DNA of 64,000 bases, from positions 4,605 through 68,604 of the forward strand of contig CALGTS010000058.1 in assembly GCA_937901925.1 (NCBI GenBank), written 5' to 3'. The stretch is from an uncultured Bacteroidales bacterium (GTDB taxonomy: Bacteria > Bacteroidota > Bacteroidia > Bacteroidales > WCHB1-69). The notes under the pieces were generated by a model. It did no database searches, was not told the origin of the DNA, and worked only from the letters and a program-made list of their open reading frames with translations. The position numbers and the translations under genes were made by a program. Of the stretch, positions 2,351 to 21,084 are shown piece after piece (the first letter of the stretch is position 1; each line of letters opens with the position of its first letter).

Positions 2351-3304
2351 CTAACGCCACGGTTCCGAAAAAATAAGCGTGTCTGTTGTTCCAGCATAAC
2401 CGCACCAAACGCCCAAAGCCTCTTCGCCACTGTCGCAGCGAATGTTCGACTGAATGGGAATAGGATTGGTAAACGGATTTTGCCCCATCATCATGTCGCT
2501 GTTGGCAGTGTTCCAAAAACGATATGCGTTGTAGTCGATCTGCGAGTAGTTGACTAAAACGGTATCGCCAACGTGATACGCAAGGCTGTTGTAAGCATTT
2601 ATGGTTTCTTCATCTTCAAAATTTGTGAACAACATTGATGGCGTAGCGCGTATCAAGTCGTACTCAAAGGTGGTTCCGCTGATGACAATATCATCAAAAA
2701 CAGCAGGTAGGGTGTTTACCCACATTCGGTCTTGAAATAAGCGATTGCGAACTTTTACCCGAAATTGGTAGTAGTTGGTTTGTGCGGGATTGTCGGTGAT
2801 AGCGAAACGAATATTTGCCGTTGAATCGTTGTAAAGTTCATTAATTTCAACAAAAAAGAGCGAATCCAAAGCAAAAGGTTCCAAAATGCGTGTTTCCGAA
2901 GTGTAAACCTTTCCATCTAACTCAATTTTTAAATGATATGTGGTGTTGGGTTGCCCTTTGAGTTGCGAACCTTTGTAAGCAAAAAAGAGCGGCGCATCTT
3001 CACTTTGTTGTAATGTCAACACTTCACTTTCCCCAAATTCAGAAGTTACGGTAACCACCGCATCGTCAATAAAAACGTCGTTCATCAAGGTGCTGAAGTT
3101 GATGTCCGAAAAGTAAGGCACACTGCGATGTATAGAAACTATCGGTTCTTTGCCAATTTCAATATATCCTTCAACTACAATTTTGTTGTAATAATCGGGC
3201 GGTGTTACCTCAATTTCTGTCTGACAACTATTAGTAACCAGCAGAGATAAAGAGATCAGCACTGAATATATTAAAGGTATGACAAATTTTCTCTTTTTAT
3301 TCAT
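2351..3304 (-). CDS. DUF4249-like lipoprotein (usual partner of CarboxypepD_reg TonB-dependent receptors)
   Basis: ORF 2351..3328; likely start is MNKKRKF at 3304, directly after the receptor stop codon (3307-3309). Lipoprotein signal ...LLVTNSCQ followed by KIVVEGYI. Position immediately downstream of the receptor is typical of the family. Confidence 0.6.
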   Translation of the reverse strand: MNKKRKFVIPLIYSVLISLSLLVTNSCQTEIEVTPPDYYNKIVVEGYIEIGKEPIVSIHRSVPYFSDINFSTLMNDVFIDDAVVTVTSEFGESEVLTLQQSEDAPLFFAYKGSQLKGQPNTTYHLKIELDGKVYTSETRILEPFALDSLFFVEINELYNDSTANIRFAITDNPAQTNYYQFRVKVRNRLFQDRMWVNTLPAVFDDIVISGTTFEYDLIRATPSMLFTNFEDEETINAYNSLAYHVGDTVLVNYSQIDYNAYRFWNTANSDMMMGQNPFTNPIPIQSNIRCDSGEEALGVWCGYAGTTDTLIFSEPWR

Positions 3305-3306
3305 AA

Positions 3307-5706
3307 CTATTTGATTTTGAAGTTCCAAGTTATTGTAGGTATAATAGGGAAAAGGCTGATTTGGTAGGCTGTAGTATTAAATTCGATGTGAGGAGGAATA
3401 ATATTGGTATCGAATTCTGTTTGAGTTTCGTAAAAGATATAGAATGGATTTTTGCGGTTGTAAACGTTGTAAATGGAGAGGCTGAGGCTGGTGTCGAAGT
3501 GCTTGCGTTTGGCAATGTTCCACGTTAGGGAAAGATCTAAGCGATGATACGGTGGCAAACGATATGCGTTGCGGTCGCTGTATTCTGTAATTAACGAGCC
3601 ATTAAAAAAGTAGAAACCGACAGGAATAGTCATTGTATTTCCAGTTGCATAAATCCATACGGCGCTGGCAGTCAGTTTGCTCGGTAAAATTTCGTAACTA
3701 AGGGTTATTGTCAGGTCGTGCCGACGGTCATACTTAGCATTGAACCATTCGCCGTTGTTTAGCGCATCGAATTGACGTTTAGAGTACGCCAATGTATAGC
3801 CGATAAATCCTGTAAATCGTCCGCGCGTTTTCTTTACAAAAAATTCAATTCCCCACGAGTAGCCTTTGCCAAAGGTGTATAGTTGATCCGCATTTATATT
3901 GACCGATGCCAAATCCAAACCTTCCTTATATTCCGCCAAATTTTTCATATTTTTGTAGTAGGCATCGATGTAGGTTTCAAACATATTATCGTAAAAGTTG
4001 CGATATACGCCCAACGAAACTTGATGTCCAATCTGAGGTTTGATAATGGAGGTAGAGGGCATCCAGATGTCGGTAGGCAGCGAGATATTTGCCATTGCAA
4101 TCTGATGAACATATTGGTGGTTCATCGTATAAGAGATTTTAATAGAGGTGTTTTTGTCTAACAGAAAGCGTGCCGAGAAGCGAGGTTCGACGTTGTTGTA
4201 CTGACTGATAATCTCTCCCGGCTTATAGGTTGTAGAATCACAGATATAGCCAAAATTGTCTAAATGGTAACGGGTAAATCTACCCACGTGCGAGAAGTGC
4301 GTGTACCGAAGGCCGATGTTTATCTTTAGCCATTTGGCAATATCGTATTCGTCGTTGGCATAAATTGCTAACTCGTTGGCATAAAATGGTTTCTGTTCAT
4401 TCAACGAAAACTCCTCATCTACGGCGCCTGTTTCCACCTCAAAACGCGAAGGAAAGAAAGCGTGGAAGGTGTAGTGTGCCCCAAAGTTCAAGGTGTGCTT
4501 TGGATTGGGAAGGAAGGTGAGTTGGCTCTTGAGGGAGTAGTCGCGAATGCCCGAAACAATGGCGGCAGAGTAAGCGTCAATGCCCATTTTTGTATCTAAA
4601 TTGTAGTTACTGAACGAAGCTGTGGTGTTCAAAAAGAGACGCGGTGCCAAAATCCATTGCCAACGCAAAGAAGCCGCCGCATTTCCCCACTGAAATTGCG
4701 TGTTCAGCGCGCCAGAGTTGGACTTAAAACCATAAACATCGTTGCCGTAATATCCGCTCGCTGTAAGGCGATGTTTATCGTTGATATTCCAGCTAATTTT
4801 TGCATTCAAATCGTAAAAGTAGAACTTACTCCCTTTCATCGGAGAATCTTTCTTCAAAAAGGGCTGAATCAGAAAGTCGGCATAGGTTCTTCTTGCAGAA
4901 ACAATTACAGCACATTTATCACGTTTCAAGGGACCTTGTACGGTAAAGCCCGAAAATACGAGTCCAATTCCTGCATCTAACTGCCACCGTTTCATATTAC
5001 CATCGTTCTGCGTTACATCAATAATCGATGCTAAACGCCCGCCATACTGCGCAGGCATCCCTGATTTAAAAATTTCTACATTTTTCACAGCATCAGCATT
5101 GAAAACGGAGAAGAAACCGAAAAGGTGACCTGCGTTATAAACTGTAGCGCCATCTAACAAGATGAGATTCTGGTCGCTATTACCACCACGCACAAAGAAG
5201 CCACTATTGCCTTCGCTACCCGACTGAATACCGGGCAGCAATTGTATCGACTTCAGCACATCAACCTCTCCCATAAAAGCAGGTAGCGACTTTATCGCTT
5301 CTATCTTCATATCCACTTTTCCCACATCAACAGCAGTCACATTTTTATCCTCTTTTTGCGCACTTATGGTTATCCCTTCCGCTTTAAAAACTTTCGGATT
5401 GAGGTCGAAATTTCGCGTTCGGTTGCTCTTCATTACTATTGTTTCTGCAATCTCCTCATATCCTAACGATTCTACTGTAAGTTTATAACTTCCTTGTTCA
5501 ATGGTAATTGAGTAAAATCCTGCGCTATTGGTTATGCTTCCTTGCGGAGTTCCACCACGCAATGTATCCCGCAGCATAACATACACGCCTGCCAAAGTTT
5601 CGCCGTTATTATTATCGCGCACGACACCCGAAAGGGTAACTTTCTGTCCCAACAACGAAAGCGGAATATTTAAGATAAGGATTAGAAAATATATAATTTT
5701 ACGCAT
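3307..5706 (-). CDS. TonB-dependent outer-membrane receptor with N-terminal carboxypeptidase-regulatory-like domain
   Basis: 799 aa with signal peptide. N-terminal GVVRDNNNGETLAGVYVML (CarboxypepD_reg-like), then a plug region (IQLLPGIQSGSEGNSGFFVRGG). Long beta-barrel ending in an aromatic C-terminus (WNFKIK). Confidence 0.85.
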   Translation of the reverse strand: MRKIIYFLILILNIPLSLLGQKVTLSGVVRDNNNGETLAGVYVMLRDTLRGGTPQGSITNSAGFYSITIEQGSYKLTVESLGYEEIAETIVMKSNRTRNFDLNPKVFKAEGITISAQKEDKNVTAVDVGKVDMKIEAIKSLPAFMGEVDVLKSIQLLPGIQSGSEGNSGFFVRGGNSDQNLILLDGATVYNAGHLFGFFSVFNADAVKNVEIFKSGMPAQYGGRLASIIDVTQNDGNMKRWQLDAGIGLVFSGFTVQGPLKRDKCAVIVSARRTYADFLIQPFLKKDSPMKGSKFYFYDLNAKISWNINDKHRLTASGYYGNDVYGFKSNSGALNTQFQWGNAAASLRWQWILAPRLFLNTTASFSNYNLDTKMGIDAYSAAIVSGIRDYSLKSQLTFLPNPKHTLNFGAHYTFHAFFPSRFEVETGAVDEEFSLNEQKPFYANELAIYANDEYDIAKWLKINIGLRYTHFSHVGRFTRYHLDNFGYICDSTTYKPGEIISQYNNVEPRFSARFLLDKNTSIKISYTMNHQYVHQIAMANISLPTDIWMPSTSIIKPQIGHQVSLGVYRNFYDNMFETYIDAYYKNMKNLAEYKEGLDLASVNINADQLYTFGKGYSWGIEFFVKKTRGRFTGFIGYTLAYSKRQFDALNNGEWFNAKYDRRHDLTITLSYEILPSKLTASAVWIYATGNTMTIPVGFYFFNGSLITEYSDRNAYRLPPYHRLDLSLTWNIAKRKHFDTSLSLSIYNVYNRKNPFYIFYETQTEFDTNIIPPHIEFNTTAYQISLFPIIPTITWNFKIK

Positions 5707-5749
5707 TGATTTATTGATATTTATGTTTTAAATCACGTTTCTTTTTTTT

Positions 5750-5932
5750 ATTTGGGCGTATCGGCTCTTTTCCGTCGCACAAAGCCTGCGCACTCGCCGT
5801 CGGGCTTTCCGCTCAAATTTCGCGCCTCTTTCTCTCGCTTCATTTTTTACAAAATTTAGACTTCAAGTTCCAAGTTCTTCATTCTAACTAAGTTCTTAAA
5901 CCGGCGCTCATAACCGCTGCAATCCCTTACGC
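5750..5932 (-). repeat. Dispersed intergenic repeat, copy B (short form, inverted relative to copy A)
   Basis: Reverse complement carries the same three blocks as copy A. Its CGCCCAAAT end faces the TonB receptor start. Confidence 0.8.
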
Positions 5933-5984
5933 ACCTCATCGCTTTTAGAACATCTCTTCGCACAAGTTGTCCCCTCTTCACACT

Positions 5985-16929: not shown

Positions 16930-17466
16930 CTATTCAACTTTCTGTTCCACCCATATTAGTTTATCGGTATTATACCCGCGTTTTTCGGCACTTTTCACCA
17001 GATAATCGAGGTCGGCTTGTGTCAGTTGCGGCGTACGACTCAAAATCCAAAGATAACGATCGCTTTTGCTGCCCACCAACGCATAACGGTAATCCTCTGC
17101 CAACTCTAACACATTGTATTGGCTGTAGATATTCATAAAGAAGGAAACCTCCAGCATACCAGGCTTTGAAGCATCAGGACGACGTGCTTTTCCTACTGAC
17201 TGGTCAAATTTTCCGTCAAGCGTCTTTTTATAACCGGAATTAACGACCAGAATTGATCCATCGTCATTTAGGGAGTAATCAGCGGTACAACCCACCAATC
17301 CACGTTCAAAAGTGTGGTCAAAGCGAGCGATTTCGTACCAATGTCCGAGATAGCGTTCTAAATCCAGATTCTTAACAGGTTCGTTAGGAATGTCTTGCGC
17401 ATCGGAGCAACCGAAAAGGGTTAGCATAGTGATACCGCAAATTAAATGTAAAAATTTTCTGTTCAT
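16930..17466 (-). CDS. blc: Bacterial lipocalin (Blc-like outer-membrane lipoprotein)
   Basis: MNRKFLHLICGITMLTLFGCS lipobox, then GHWYEIARFDHTFERG, the lipocalin signature. ORF-track start 17616 trimmed. Confidence 0.8.
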   Translation of the reverse strand: MNRKFLHLICGITMLTLFGCSDAQDIPNEPVKNLDLERYLGHWYEIARFDHTFERGLVGCTADYSLNDDGSILVVNSGYKKTLDGKFDQSVGKARRPDASKPGMLEVSFFMNIYSQYNVLELAEDYRYALVGSKSDRYLWILSRTPQLTQADLDYLVKSAEKRGYNTDKLIWVEQKVE

Positions 17467-17790
17467 AATGTTTGATTTTAAAATGGTTAATGTTTGATGT
17501 AAAACTCTTGCGAGATTATAGAGTAAAAACATCGTGCTGCGGCAATTGTTCAGAAATAAAAAAAAAGAATATAGATAATGACAACAAACTCCTATCGGCA
17601 CAGCCATACTAAGCATACGGAAGAAAACAATATATCAGAAAATAGTAGTATAAGAAAAAAAAATCTTGCAAAAACTATCTTTGTCTAAAAAAATCACACA
17701 CTCTCCCCTACCATTAATGGAAAATTAATAGTAATTTTGCCAAATATATTTCACTATTCATCACGCATTTATTCATTAACCCAAAAAAAT

Positions 17791-18366
17791 ATGAAAAAGC
17801 TATTTATCACCCTTATTGCCACAATTTTATTGTCACCAATTTTTGCACAAAGCGAACATCTAACCTTCAAAGGCATTCCCATTGACGGCTCCTTAGCCGA
17901 CTTCTCCAACCAAATGAACCAAAAAGGCTTCACCCATATAGCAACTGAGGACGGCACTGCTGCTTTCGCCGGAGAGTTCGCATCATACAAAAATTGTACT
18001 ATTGGTGTTCTATGTTCTAAAAGCACAAAAATTGTCAATAAAGTGGGCGTAATCTTTCCAAAATGCGACACTTGGTCAAAACTATATAGCAACTATAGCC
18101 ATTTAAAAGAGATGTTAACCATTAAATATGGAGAACCCACAGAAAGTACAGAAAAGTTCCAAAGCATCATAGAACCTACAGATGACAACATGAAAATGCG
18201 CTATGTTGAATTAGACAACTGCAAATACACAACCTCGTGGGTAACAGAAAAGGGAACTATAGAACTTGAGATAACGCACCAAGATTACGATTGCCACGTC
18301 GTTTTACACTATTGGGATAAGATTAACACCGAGAAAGTTACCAGCTCAGCGATAGATGACTTATAA
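17791..18366 (+). CDS. Hypothetical secreted protein
   Basis: Signal peptide MKKLFITLIATILLSPIFAQ. No recognisable family. Confidence 0.5.
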   Translation: MKKLFITLIATILLSPIFAQSEHLTFKGIPIDGSLADFSNQMNQKGFTHIATEDGTAAFAGEFASYKNCTIGVLCSKSTKIVNKVGVIFPKCDTWSKLYSNYSHLKEMLTIKYGEPTESTEKFQSIIEPTDDNMKMRYVELDNCKYTTSWVTEKGTIELEITHQDYDCHVVLHYWDKINTEKVTSSAIDDL

Positions 18367-18925: not shown

Positions 18926-20791
18926 CTACTGCTTTTTCAACAATTTCACCACTTTACCTCCTGAATTCAAGAGATAGAATCCATCTGCAAAGGTCGATAA
19001 ATCCAACACAAAGCGGCTGTCGCTGGCGATGCCTTGCCACAGAAGTTGTCCGTACGCATTATAGAGCGAGATTGGCGTATTGATTTTCAAATCAGATATT
19101 TGAACACTATTGCAACAAGGATTGGGGAACACCTTCCAGCAATCCACAGTGCTGTTTTCCTCCACGCCAACCGGCATCCATCCATTCATCACCGCTACGC
19201 CTGCCAAATCGAAGCCGCCACTGGCAAAATCTGTCGGGTACGGGTCATTTATCGCATTTCCGTTTCTATCGAAAGTTGCCCATTGTGCATCTATAGAACC
19301 GACAACATCCACTACTTTAATATGCGTAATTGCATTGAGATCCAAATTGGAATAACCGCTTAACTGCGCTAAATCGAAAGGTGTTCCCCAACCTACCTTA
19401 TACTTGCCCGCAAGATTACTCAAATTTTGAGCGTCAACGGTTCCCGTACTGCTGATTTGGAGTGCTGTAGGTGTTAAAGAAGTTGCCGGAAAACGGTAAA
19501 AATGAACGCCGTCAGAACTTACCTCTACGAATGCCAATTCCAGAAAAATGTCATTGAGAGCATTTTCAAAGACTGCGAAATCATACCCCACACCATTTTG
19601 AATGGGAGCGTCAAACGTCAGAAGTGCGGCACCACCATCGCCCAAACTCACCACTTCTACTGTAGAGTTGGTCACTTGGCCTACTGCATTGGCAGCTTCG
19701 CCATAAGTGACGGCAAGCATCTGATTTTCCATATTTTGCCAACCTCTATCCACCTCGCAAGTTGCCGCCCAGTCCACAATTTGCGGATCCTCACAACTAA
19801 TAGCTTGGCAATTCTCACTTCCCACTATCCCATCAAACTGCGTTTGCGGAGGCGTTGGCTTAGCAACGGGATTCACAACGGTCAACCAAGTATAATTAAA
19901 GTTCTCATCTGCATTTCCACAACTTTCATCTCCCCATTTCACCACATCACCATCATGTACATATTGGGTTGTAAATCCATTGACAGCTCCCTGACCATTA
20001 ATATTATACATCCACCAATCACCCGCCAACGCAAGCGAGTAGTTTCCATCGTTGAAAGTAATATCGCTCATCATTGAACCATTGGCCAGATAATCGAATC
20101 GTTCATCATAAATCGCAATTGTCCGCATCAGGTCAGCCACCAAGGCACTATCACCTGGGAAACGCACACCCCAAGCGAGACAGATTGCGGTATCGCACCA
20201 ATTCACAGCAACGATAGCATAACTTTCACCATTACCCACCCAATAATCTATCTCTTCAGCCATTATTGTAGCATCCTCATTTTCAGGGGGAAGGTTCGGA
20301 TTGACCGGATAGAAGATATTCTCATTCGGGAGTGTACAATCCGCATACTGGCACATTTCAAAATAATCTCCATCTGCAAGCGGGTCCGACAAACCCGAGG
20401 AGAATGAACCGTTAACGGTGTACATCAGCATACCGCTATCTTCCATATAGTTCAGGGAGCCGTTACTATAGCCAAAACCATTCACCCAACTTCCCAAATC
20501 GATGTAAAAATTGGAGTCTGCGGAGGCTATTGCGTTCAACATATCAGCAATGGTGGCAGAACCGCTAAACCGATAACCATAGGCGACGCCACCGGGTGTG
20601 CTACCACACCAAAAAAAGCCTGCCACAACGGAATTTTCGCCTTCGCCCACCCAGAATTGGATAGCAGAAGCGGGAATATCCGTCACTTCTTTTAACACGG
20701 AACCATTTGAGATCAAATCTCTTACATACTCATTTTGCGCACACAAAGTGAACGTTGAAAAAACAAGCAAAAAACACAAAACTCTTCTCAT
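18926..20791 (-). CDS. T9SS-sorted secreted protein with two transcobalamin-beta-like (DUF4430-like) repeats; predicted cobalamin-binding
   Basis: Signal peptide at the N-terminus. Two internal repeats end in LMYTVNGSFSSGLSDPLADGDYFEM and WMYNINGQGAVNGFTTQYVHDGDVVKW. C-terminal Por/T9SS sorting domain (VFPNPCCNSVQISDL...GFYLLNSGGKVVKLLKKQ). Sits directly downstream of a cobalamin riboswitch. Confidence 0.7.
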   Translation of the reverse strand: MRRVLCFLLVFSTFTLCAQNEYVRDLISNGSVLKEVTDIPASAIQFWVGEGENSVVAGFFWCGSTPGGVAYGYRFSGSATIADMLNAIASADSNFYIDLGSWVNGFGYSNGSLNYMEDSGMLMYTVNGSFSSGLSDPLADGDYFEMCQYADCTLPNENIFYPVNPNLPPENEDATIMAEEIDYWVGNGESYAIVAVNWCDTAICLAWGVRFPGDSALVADLMRTIAIYDERFDYLANGSMMSDITFNDGNYSLALAGDWWMYNINGQGAVNGFTTQYVHDGDVVKWGDESCGNADENFNYTWLTVVNPVAKPTPPQTQFDGIVGSENCQAISCEDPQIVDWAATCEVDRGWQNMENQMLAVTYGEAANAVGQVTNSTVEVVSLGDGGAALLTFDAPIQNGVGYDFAVFENALNDIFLELAFVEVSSDGVHFYRFPATSLTPTALQISSTGTVDAQNLSNLAGKYKVGWGTPFDLAQLSGYSNLDLNAITHIKVVDVVGSIDAQWATFDRNGNAINDPYPTDFASGGFDLAGVAVMNGWMPVGVEENSTVDCWKVFPNPCCNSVQISDLKINTPISLYNAYGQLLWQGIASDSRFVLDLSTFADGFYLLNSGGKVVKLLKKQ

Positions 20792-20894
20792 AATTTAAGT
20801 TTTAAGTTAAACAATAAGTTAATAATATATTGTGTTATTGCCCAGGGAAAAAGAAACGAAAGCTTAAAACAAGATCTCGTGTAAGCCTATCTCC

Positions 20895-21060
20895 CGAAGC
20901 TACTCACAAAAAGTTTACGGCAGGTTTTCTGACTTGTTTCCGAGTGCGCCTTCCCATTGACAAACAACAGTGGCTTTGAGCACTCGATATAATGAAACTT
21001 ACAGCAGCGGGTACTGTACAGGAGTCTCACCTGTTTCCCTCTCACAACTCAACAGAGTTG
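20895..21060 (-). promoter_or_regulatory. Cobalamin (B12) riboswitch
   Basis: Minus strand reads GAGAGGGAAACAGGTGAGACTCCTGTACAGTACCCGCTGCTGTAAG ... AAAGCCACTGTTG ... GGGAAGGCGCACTCGG ... AAGTCAGAAAACCTGCCG. All hallmark blocks are present: AGGGAA, GGTG..A.TCC, CCCGC.GCTGTAA, the B12 box GCCACTG, GGGAAGGC and AGTCAG.A.ACCTGCC. Boundaries are approximate. Confidence 0.8.
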
Positions 21061-21076
21061 CTCACCGAAAACGCGG

Positions 21077-21084
21077 CAAAGATA
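21077..21084 (-). promoter_or_regulatory. -7 promoter box (TATCTTTG) for the riboswitch transcript
   Basis: Reverse complement of CAAAGATA matches TAnnTTTG, just upstream of the riboswitch 5' end. Confidence 0.45.

Follow-up and report, generated by a model that had tools for sequence, protein, structure and literature searches.

What does a single gene for a secreted protein do behind a cobalamin (B12) riboswitch when no receptor gene lies beside it? The question is raised by positions 18926 to 21084 of a 64,000-nucleotide (nt) stretch of contig CALGTS010000058.1 (assembly GCA_937901925.1, an uncultured Bacteroidales bacterium); we call this whole stretch the window and use its numbering throughout. 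The locus consists of a riboswitch and a gene for a 621-amino-acid (aa) protein with two repeats, a central domain, and a C-terminal sorting domain of the type IX secretion system (T9SS). A sequence-only reading had predicted a secreted or surface-anchored corrinoid-capture protein. After comparison with several sets of relatives, we consider it probable that the locus is a one-gene, B12-repressed unit for an extracellular corrinoid-capture protein that feeds a BtuG-BtuB complex, with both the repression and the binding predicted. The principal competing explanation is that the central domain, or the protein as a whole, is a non-binding adaptor.

A cobalamin riboswitch precedes a single gene

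The Rfam cobalamin model RF00174 matched over its full length at 94.9 bits (gathering score, 31.5; E = 2.4e-22; cmscan of the window; Table 1). This bears out the complete minus-strand riboswitch read from the letters alone at about 20895 to 21060, except that its 5' end lies ~24 nt further upstream, at 21084. The two short elements expected there were both located: the GCCACUG B12 box (GCCACTG in DNA) falls at 20968 to 20974 in the cmscan alignment, and the octamer TATCTTTG, on the unpaired 5' edge of the aptamer match, fits the Bacteroidota -7 consensus TAnnTTTG. Of 68 related riboswitch loci, 62 have such a box at the equivalent place (background, 2.4% per 65-nt window), and because of this shared placement we do not regard it as a chance match; TATCTTTG is the predicted -7 promoter box of the riboswitch transcript.

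Between the aptamer and the ATG of the 621-aa open reading frame (ORF) lie 110 nt, close to the ~100 nt estimated earlier. Upstream lies a plus-strand tRNA-Ser(GGA) gene, read in the opposite direction, and a plus-strand gene of the cytidine/guanine-deaminase type converges on the 3' end of the ORF, so that the riboswitch is predicted to control this gene only. The gene had been described as standing alone without an adjacent btuB, which holds for the locus at 18926 to 21084 but not as a rule for the family, where it is one of several arrangements. The sole riboswitch-linked pair of BtuG-like and TonB-dependent receptor genes in the genome sits on another contig (C55).

A predicted T9SS cargo with two transcobalamin-like repeats

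More than 2252 homologs of the 621-aa protein were found. Its signal peptide is predicted to be cleaved between LCA and QNE, before Gln19. In an alignment of 45 homologs, Q19 was invariant and A18 and N20 were at least 90% conserved. Cys17 was not conserved; therefore, there is no lipobox, and the protein is expected to be a signal peptidase I substrate and not a lipoprotein. The glutamine that follows the cleavage site presumably reflects the Q-rule of the Bacteroidetes.

The T9SS sorting domain proposed earlier was recovered by TIGR04183 at 28.7 (cut-off, 23). PF18962 scored 26.8 with hmmscan and 30.4 in a six-frame genome search (cut-off, 27) and matched 45 of the 45 aligned homologs. When the protein and the family profile were searched against Protein Data Bank (PDB) sequences, T9SS sorting domains were matched, the family profile hitting the solved domains 7pzj, 8glj_D, and 8glk_D, and the central domain matched nothing. 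Taken together, the sorting domain, the signal peptide, and the presence of PorU in the genome make the 621-aa protein a predicted type-A T9SS cargo.

Between the signal peptide and the central domain are two repeats of ~135 aa each, which align with each other at 34% identity (E = 4e-13). Both carry the motif on which the transcobalamin-beta-like assignment had been based, as MLMYTVNG...DGD (residues 121 to 142) in repeat 1 and WWMYNINGQ...DGD (residues 259 to 282) in repeat 2, and that assignment agrees with the predicted fold. In an AlphaFold2 (AF2) model, both repeats have the order strand-strand-helix-hairpin-three strands with a predicted local distance difference test score (pLDDT) of 80 to 93, a comparison of element order and not a superposition. 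The same topology was assigned by Burroughs et al. in 2007 to the transcobalamin-like clade of the SLBB beta-grasp superfamily, members of which were predicted to scavenge B12 on bacterial surfaces (PMC1796856). DUF4430 (PF14478) was matched by 45 of 45 aligned homologs at E ≤ 0.01, and three close relatives (P0005, P0013, and P0069) scored 51.9, 49.3, and 38.9 bits over the equivalent repeat, at profile positions 15 to 68 of 72. By these profile matches, the repeats are assigned to DUF4430 at the family level. A profile of the repeats matched nothing in the PDB, and we found no test of the 2007 prediction in the literature searched.

The central domain defines a family remotely related to BtuH

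The central domain (GYDFAVFEN...FLELAFVEVSSDG...NLAGKY...GFDL) is the most conserved stretch of the protein and was matched by no Pfam or NCBIfam model. Used alone, it found 1859 clusters (50%-identity representatives) at E ≤ 1e-3, with member proteins of 245 to 2235 aa, and 776 clusters at E ≤ 1e-30. Across 80 loci from GTDB species genomes, which take in Flavobacteriales, Sphingobacteriaceae, Cytophagales, and one Chlorobiota bin, the domain is 46 to 64% identical, and a strong copy was present in 12 of 401 genomes sampled across the phylum, the host included. On these sequence grounds, we take the central domain, and not the repeats, to define the family. The isolated domain was modeled by AF2 from 79 sequences as a beta-jelly-roll with a pLDDT of 92.8 and a predicted template-modeling score (pTM) of 0.91. 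An assignment to DUF4465 (BtuJ type, PF14717) was rejected, with no match at E ≤ 1. Weak matches to NF033170, the Leptospira LIC_13355 lipoprotein, were seen in residues 75 to 130 of an ORF in locus L207 (5767 to 6714; 20.2 bits) and in residues 88 to 148 of L071:5947-6918 (14.7 bits), both below the cut-off of 120; given these, the core fold may extend beyond Bacteroidota.

The central domain shares a motif with the B12-binding domain of BtuH: BtuH2 (PDB 7BIZ, a neighbor of BtuL) has HVSLGSFGGYIIVGFDHSIPNSGNQYDFCVQGNAFD and the 621-aa protein VVSLGDGGAALLTFDAPIQNGVGYDFAVFENALN, the common pattern being VSLG-GG...F...I.N..G.DF.V..NAF...EP..V.VS.D. In profile-profile comparison (hhalign), the two domains aligned over 72 columns with the first profiles (Prob, 89%; P = 2e-6) and over 141 columns with profiles of 225 and 223 sequences (Prob, 95.1%; P = 3.5e-8). 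Reversed-profile controls gave a Prob of at most 1% (P = 0.05 to 0.11), and an SLBB repeat profile gave at most 0.5% (P = 0.11 to 0.19). The confident part of the alignment spans only the first ~110 to 140 residues, and the central-domain hidden Markov model (HMM) scored ~27 bits on BtuH proteins.

An intermediate family links the two, aligning with the central domain at a Prob of 99.8% (P = 3e-29) and with the BtuH domain at 97.3% (P = 2e-11). Its members, of ~260 to 370 aa, are mostly T9SS tailed, come from other classes of the phylum, and have no Pfam model; their core motif is LSIG-GG-I..F....I.DG.G.DF.VFENAF...AEPA.VSVS.DG. A same-strand upstream cobalamin riboswitch was present in 7 of the 10 loci inspected (L204 to L213, from genomes G182, G237, G094, G277, G049, G297, G118, G249, G205, and G020).

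In BtuH2, Asn399 contacts the B12 phosphate (PMC8941943). This residue aligns with N410 of the 621-aa protein (99% conservation across the central-domain family). From these comparisons, we conclude that the central domain is, at the level of sequence profiles, a remote homolog of the BtuH B12-binding domain and belongs to a compact, divergent branch of the BtuH superfamily, outside the BtuH family itself. Our claim is limited to remote sequence homology because 7BIZ is missing from the best 50 of the 658 Foldseek matches of the central-domain model. The relation lends support to the earlier suggestion that the central ~200 aa may be a further binding domain; binding by this domain is a prediction from homology.

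Sequence searches of the usual kind are blind to the relation: phmmer and the family profile matched neither 7BIZ nor 8BLW in the PDB at E ≤ 1, and the protein lies outside the BLAST threshold used to call BtuH homologs (E ≤ 0.03) (PMC8941943). BtuH2 itself was reported to resemble, weakly, only an alginate-lyase protein (PMC8941943).

Bona fide BtuH-type domains with a T9SS sorting domain also occur in Bacteroidales metagenome-assembled genomes (MAGs), as proteins of ~370 to 390 aa that are 51 to 59% identical to the BtuGH domain (P0421, P0428, P0430, P0433, P0434, P0492, and P0502). BtuH itself therefore has T9SS-delivered versions.

Binding protein or adaptor

Several observations weigh against a capture protein repressed by B12. 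On the regulatory side, a scan for consensus intrinsic terminators in the leader (20792 to 20901) found none, the predicted leader hairpin is no stabler than those of shuffled sequence (z = -1.2), and folding together with the scan gave no clear sequestering helix either. As to the repeats, the DUF4430 match of the 621-aa protein itself reaches 22.8 bits against a cut-off of 23.8 and covers only residues 257 to 286 in repeat 2, so that the DUF4430 assignment stands for the family and falls short on the protein's own score. As to the central domain, only one of the six ligand contacts of BtuH2 (Q333, N399, H476, Y510, W511, and W577) has a conserved equivalent, that of N399. The Q333-equivalent position is variable, and the last four contacts fall in the C-terminal half, where there is no reliable alignment; the corresponding region of the central domain contains no invariant His or Trp, and W341 lies upstream of N410. 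A Foldseek search with the domain model gave, among the best 50 matches, from which 7BIZ was absent, only weak similarities to CBM32 and F5/8-type-C jelly rolls (best E, 4e-3), the best neighbors being the CBM32 structures 5zu6 (an alginate lyase CBM32), 4a44, and 4lpl. A Foldseek search of the PDB with the whole protein was uninformative, because the model has several domains and a pTM of 0.39: it was dominated by domains other than the repeats and gave only low-TM jelly-roll and immunoglobulin-like matches (beta-glucuronidase and Endo-A). Moreover, the central domain is almost always accompanied by another putative binder (SLBB repeats, DUF4465, or DUF5074), fused or adjacent, and could be a common adaptor instead of a binder. 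Finally, BtuL of Bacteroides thetaiotaomicron is a surface protein of a B12 operon that does not bind B12 (PMC12751083).

The interchangeable companions, the single shared ligand contact, the generic CBM32-like structural matches, and the precedent of BtuL are what one would expect of a protein that assists B12 uptake without binding the vitamin. In that case, the central domain would dock partner binders onto BtuG-BtuB, the cell surface, or vesicles, or, as proposed for BtuL, the protein would promote vesicle release. We consider this unlikely, although it is the strongest of the competing explanations. The central domain is homologous to a domain shown crystallographically to bind B12 and keeps the phosphate-contacting Asn, the protein would still bind through its fused SLBB repeats even if the central domain did not, and BtuL is unrelated to it.

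That last point was established directly. The position of central-domain genes between DUF4465 and DUF5074 genes, which is also that of BT1955 (BtuL) in B. thetaiotaomicron, had raised the suspicion that they are BtuL orthologs, and the BT1955 locus was recovered from human-gut contigs by means of published primer sequences. BT1955 proved to be a Recep_L_domain repeat protein unrelated to the central domain, and the identity was rejected. On one human-gut contig (L084:2648-4184), the btuL frame is split into overlapping ORFs at 2648 to 3733 and 3720 to 4184, which points to a frameshift or to misassembly of the metagenome contig.

The family is embedded in B12 loci

A capture role is further favored by the genomic context of the relatives, which are overwhelmingly rumen and hindgut Bacteroidales MAGs. 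Rfam identified a same-strand upstream cobalamin riboswitch in all 11 full-length relatives and an upstream riboswitch in 7 of 12 loci encoding only the central domain and the sorting domain. With an nhmmer profile built from the Rfam matches, a riboswitch was found upstream, always on the strand of the gene, in 70 of 80 related loci (about 88%); about six of the 10 negative loci carry less than 3 kb of upstream sequence. Among 68 loci, the riboswitch lies directly upstream of the gene in 20, is separated from it by one gene in 31, and by a larger operon in 17; what intervenes is either a BtuG-like gene or an entire btuB operon. The single intervening gene usually encodes a lipoprotein of ~355 to 385 aa; at five inspected loci, these are homologs of the DUF5074 protein of contig C55. 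In rumen relatives, it is a DUF5074 lipoprotein gene that lies between riboswitch and homolog. DUF5074 (PF16819) is the BtuG-type propeller (PMC13398666).

In Bacteroidota from outside the rumen, the central domain and the sorting domain form a separate ~325-aa gene product encoded inside riboswitch-BtuB operons. The typical gene order, seen in L071, L075, and L078, runs from the riboswitch through a BtuB-like TonB-dependent receptor, a T9SS-tailed DUF4465 protein, and a T9SS-tailed central-domain protein to a DUF5074 lipoprotein. In an isolate, Mesonia ostreae (L080), a BtuB-like receptor is followed by a DUF5074 lipoprotein, a T9SS-tailed DUF5074 protein, and a T9SS-tailed central-domain protein. 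Fusions of the repeat module, in 1 to 5 copies, to the central domain were seen in 47 ORFs; in 20 more loci (e.g., L050, L029, and L061), the module has an ORF of its own directly upstream of the gene for the central domain. From this pattern of fusion and fission, we argue that the two modules work together.

In locus L050, a 717-aa T9SS-tailed protein (3783 to 5936) is encoded between the repeat-protein and central-domain genes of a riboswitch operon; it has an N-terminal region of ~450 aa without family assignment, an FN3 domain, and two PKD domains. PKD domains occur in BtuH and BtuK too, and the protein may be a further B12-capture accessory. In the same locus, nrdD-nrdG follow the central-domain gene, maybe within one riboswitch operon.

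These associations bear on the proposal that the protein is regulated by B12 and has some other function, as a surface adhesin, a glycan binder, or a B12-independent substitute that is shut off while B12 is abundant. The CBM32 structures among the best Foldseek neighbors would suit it, as would the fact that a riboswitch of the host also controls the B12-independent nrdD-nrdG, and both Burroughs et al. and their reviewers cautioned that SLBB domains may have ligands other than B12 (PMC1796856). However, in several classes of Bacteroidota the family shares operons with BtuB, BtuG-like, and DUF4465 genes, the protein has no enzyme domain, and it is hard to name an extracellular B12-dependent function that it would replace. 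We regard this explanation as very improbable.

The exchange of partners around a constant part leads to a broader idea, which we put forward tentatively and as a good deal less secure than the capture role of the 621-aa protein: T9SS-bearing Bacteroidota might use a modular secreted "corrinophore" system, of which we found no description in the literature. A compact BtuH-superfamily domain with a T9SS tail would be its constant part, and the interchangeable partner, fused or encoded beside it, would be tandem SLBB repeats, DUF4465, or a BtuG-like propeller. The proteins would be released or displayed at the surface under B12 starvation and then be retaken at BtuG-BtuB, much as hemophores and siderophores are; the rumen form would carry up to six binding modules. 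If so, transcobalamin-type B12 binding would be placed in Gram-negative gut bacteria.

Host genome and proposed pathway

The assembly (2.4 Mb in 58 contigs, 98.6% complete) yielded neither CbiD nor CobS, and three of its proteins contain the B12-binding domain PF02310; the host probably relies wholly on the import of finished cobamides. The search for T9SS machinery covered PorU and sorting domains and found a full-length PorU (1216 bits) and 54 sorting-domain hits, against zero sorting-domain hits in B. thetaiotaomicron as a control.

There are three cobalamin riboswitches in the host genome, including the copy at 20902 to 21084. The second (92.7 bits) precedes nrdD-nrdG (contig C53:6673-9477, locus L002), which encode the anaerobic class III ribonucleotide reductase, an enzyme that works without B12; by implication, the host prefers a B12-dependent reductase while it has the vitamin. 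The third precedes genes for a 348-aa DUF5074 (BtuG-type) lipoprotein and a 671-aa TonB-dependent receptor (C55:13374-16693, locus L003). The C55 pair has no adjacent btuFCD and is followed by a gene for a 582-aa membrane transporter-like protein. Neither a DUF4465 protein nor a second copy of the central domain was found in the genome search, which leaves the 621-aa protein as the only candidate accessory binder in the host besides the BtuG-like lipoprotein.

TABLE 1. Predicted features of the riboswitch locus, in window coordinates
Feature	Position	Strand	Basis
Bacteroidota-type -7 promoter box TATCTTTG	21077-21084	-	Read from sequence
Cobalamin riboswitch aptamer, RF00174	20902-21084	-	cmscan, model 1-189 of 189
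Expression platform/5' leader, between aptamer and ATG	20792-20901	-
Coding sequence of the 621-aa T9SS cargo protein (P0001), including stop codon	18926-20791	-	ORF list and translation
Sec signal peptide (signal peptidase I), residues 1-18	20738-20791	-	Read from sequence
Repeat 1, SLBB/DUF4430-like beta-grasp, residues ~38-166	20294-20680	-	Internal repeat, AF2
Repeat 2, SLBB/DUF4430, residues ~172-312	19856-20278	-	PF14478, AF2
Central domain, beta-jelly-roll, residues 312-548 (237 aa)	19148-19858	-	AF2, hhalign to BtuH
Type-A T9SS C-terminal sorting domain, residues ~551-621	18929-19141	-	TIGR04183, PF18962

Within 1 to 2 kb downstream of the gene are a bacterial lipocalin of the Blc type (Lipocalin_2, 146 bits; 16930 to 17616, minus strand) and a 209-aa secreted protein without a family match (17737 to 18366, plus strand); no link to B12 was seen for either.

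For the favored capture role, the following course of events is proposed. When the cobamide pool is low, the riboswitch would leave the gene on, and expression would fall once the aptamer is occupied by cobamide. The product would cross the inner membrane by Sec and be cleaved before Gln19, and the type-A domain would direct its export by the T9SS. By analogy with the protein family, PorU would remove the sorting domain and would then attach the protein to the surface or release it. Outside the cell, the SLBB repeats, the BtuH-superfamily jelly-roll domain, or both would bind cobamide and hand it to a BtuG-like propeller lipoprotein that caps a BtuB-type TonB-dependent transporter, the candidates being the C55 pair. 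The protein would thereby be a T9SS-delivered functional counterpart of the lipoproteins BtuH, BtuJ, and BtuK of Bacteroides, where T9SS cargo is lacking. Strong comparative support for a secreted or surface-exposed corrinoid-capture protein, as first proposed, comes from the riboswitches at 70 of 80 loci, the linkage to BtuB, BtuG-like, and DUF4465 genes, and a host without CbiD and CobS; the binding itself is predicted.

Release by the T9SS would also allow the protein to serve mainly to sequester cobamides and starve competitors, without efficient hand-off. Its several putative binding modules (with 1 to 5 repeats in relatives), the ability of the T9SS to release cargo, and the dense, competitive rumen and hindgut habitat of most relatives are consistent with such a role. 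Predicted repression by B12, however, fits acquisition during the cell's own shortage, and the occurrence beside BtuG-like and BtuB genes in relatives speaks for delivery. We judge sequestration as the main function to be very improbable; it overlaps with the capture role and does not exclude it.

Significance

Cobamides are competed for in the gut and rumen, which shapes the communities there and, in ruminants, has a bearing on how much B12 the host receives. The known extracellular B12 binders of Bacteroidota are BtuG, BtuH, BtuJ, and BtuK (PMC6143338, PMC8941943, PMC12751083, PMC13616437), and what is known of extracellular capture comes almost wholly from these lipoproteins of B. thetaiotaomicron. 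By analogy, the family described here likely does the same job with different parts in T9SS-bearing Bacteroidota. We found no publication on the central-domain family, on its relationship to BtuH, or on T9SS-tagged SLBB repeats behind B12 riboswitches; what appears to be new is a large unnamed domain family in the B12 regulon, its link to the BtuH superfamily, and its fusion to the repeats. If binding holds true, a new domain family of Pfam scale would get a name, the relay model of cobamide uptake would be extended beyond Bacteroides, and compact multimodule B12-binding scaffolds would become available. If one type of module alone binds, the roles of catcher and adaptor could be assigned.

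Comparison with known systems

The repeats resemble the beta-domain of transcobalamin and intrinsic factor and the bacterial transcobalamin-like SLBB clade in (i) a beta-grasp with a hairpin inserted after the helix, (ii) DUF4430 matches across the family, together with a predicted extracellular location, and (iii) occurrence in organisms without B12 synthesis and predicted B12 scavenging. B12 binding by bacterial SLBB members is a prediction in PMC1796856 and is likewise predicted for the repeats here. The 621-aa protein differs in having no alpha/alpha-toroid partner domain and in having tandem copies (two here, 1 to 5 in relatives), and each repeat is ~135 aa long, whereas the Pfam DUF4430 core has 72 positions. 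Members of the known clade are from Firmicutes and Archaea and are associated with CbiO/CbiQ-type transporters, whereas the repeats described here occur in T9SS-tailed proteins of Bacteroidota that are encoded behind a riboswitch.

BtuJ1 and BtuJ2 and the other B12 binders of the DUF4465 family (IPR027828), to which high-affinity cobamide capture is ascribed, would share with the 621-aa protein the extracellular capture of cobamides upstream of BtuG-BtuB (PMC12751083, PMC13398666). DUF4465 genes with sorting domains adjoin central-domain genes in L071, L075, and L078, and T9SS-tagged B12 binders had already been noted, since 229 of 824 DUF4465 proteins carry the sorting domain IPR026444 (PMC12751083). 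The protein described here has no DUF4465 match and belongs to another fold family with other motifs. The complexes of BtuG, a DUF5074 beta-propeller lipoprotein, with BtuB are the presumed receiving end of the relay (PMC6143338, PMC10404256); unlike BtuG, the 621-aa protein has no propeller, and its gene is not adjacent to BtuB.

Also among the closest known systems is BtuH of B. thetaiotaomicron, comprising BtuH1, BtuH2, and the BtuGH fusion (7BIZ and 8BLW_B; PMC8941943, PMC10404256). Both are accessory proteins of riboswitch-controlled B12 uptake loci, surface exposed in BtuH and predicted to be so here, and both combine a modular N-terminal part with a C-terminal jelly-roll-like domain. 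The central domain, of 237 aa, is shorter than the BtuH domain of ~281 aa, and neither BLAST nor phmmer sees the relation. The N-terminal modules are SLBB/DUF4430 repeats here and a PKD domain or a propeller in BtuH, and BtuH is lipid anchored, whereas the 621-aa protein is predicted to be delivered by the T9SS and its family often forms a one-gene riboswitch unit.

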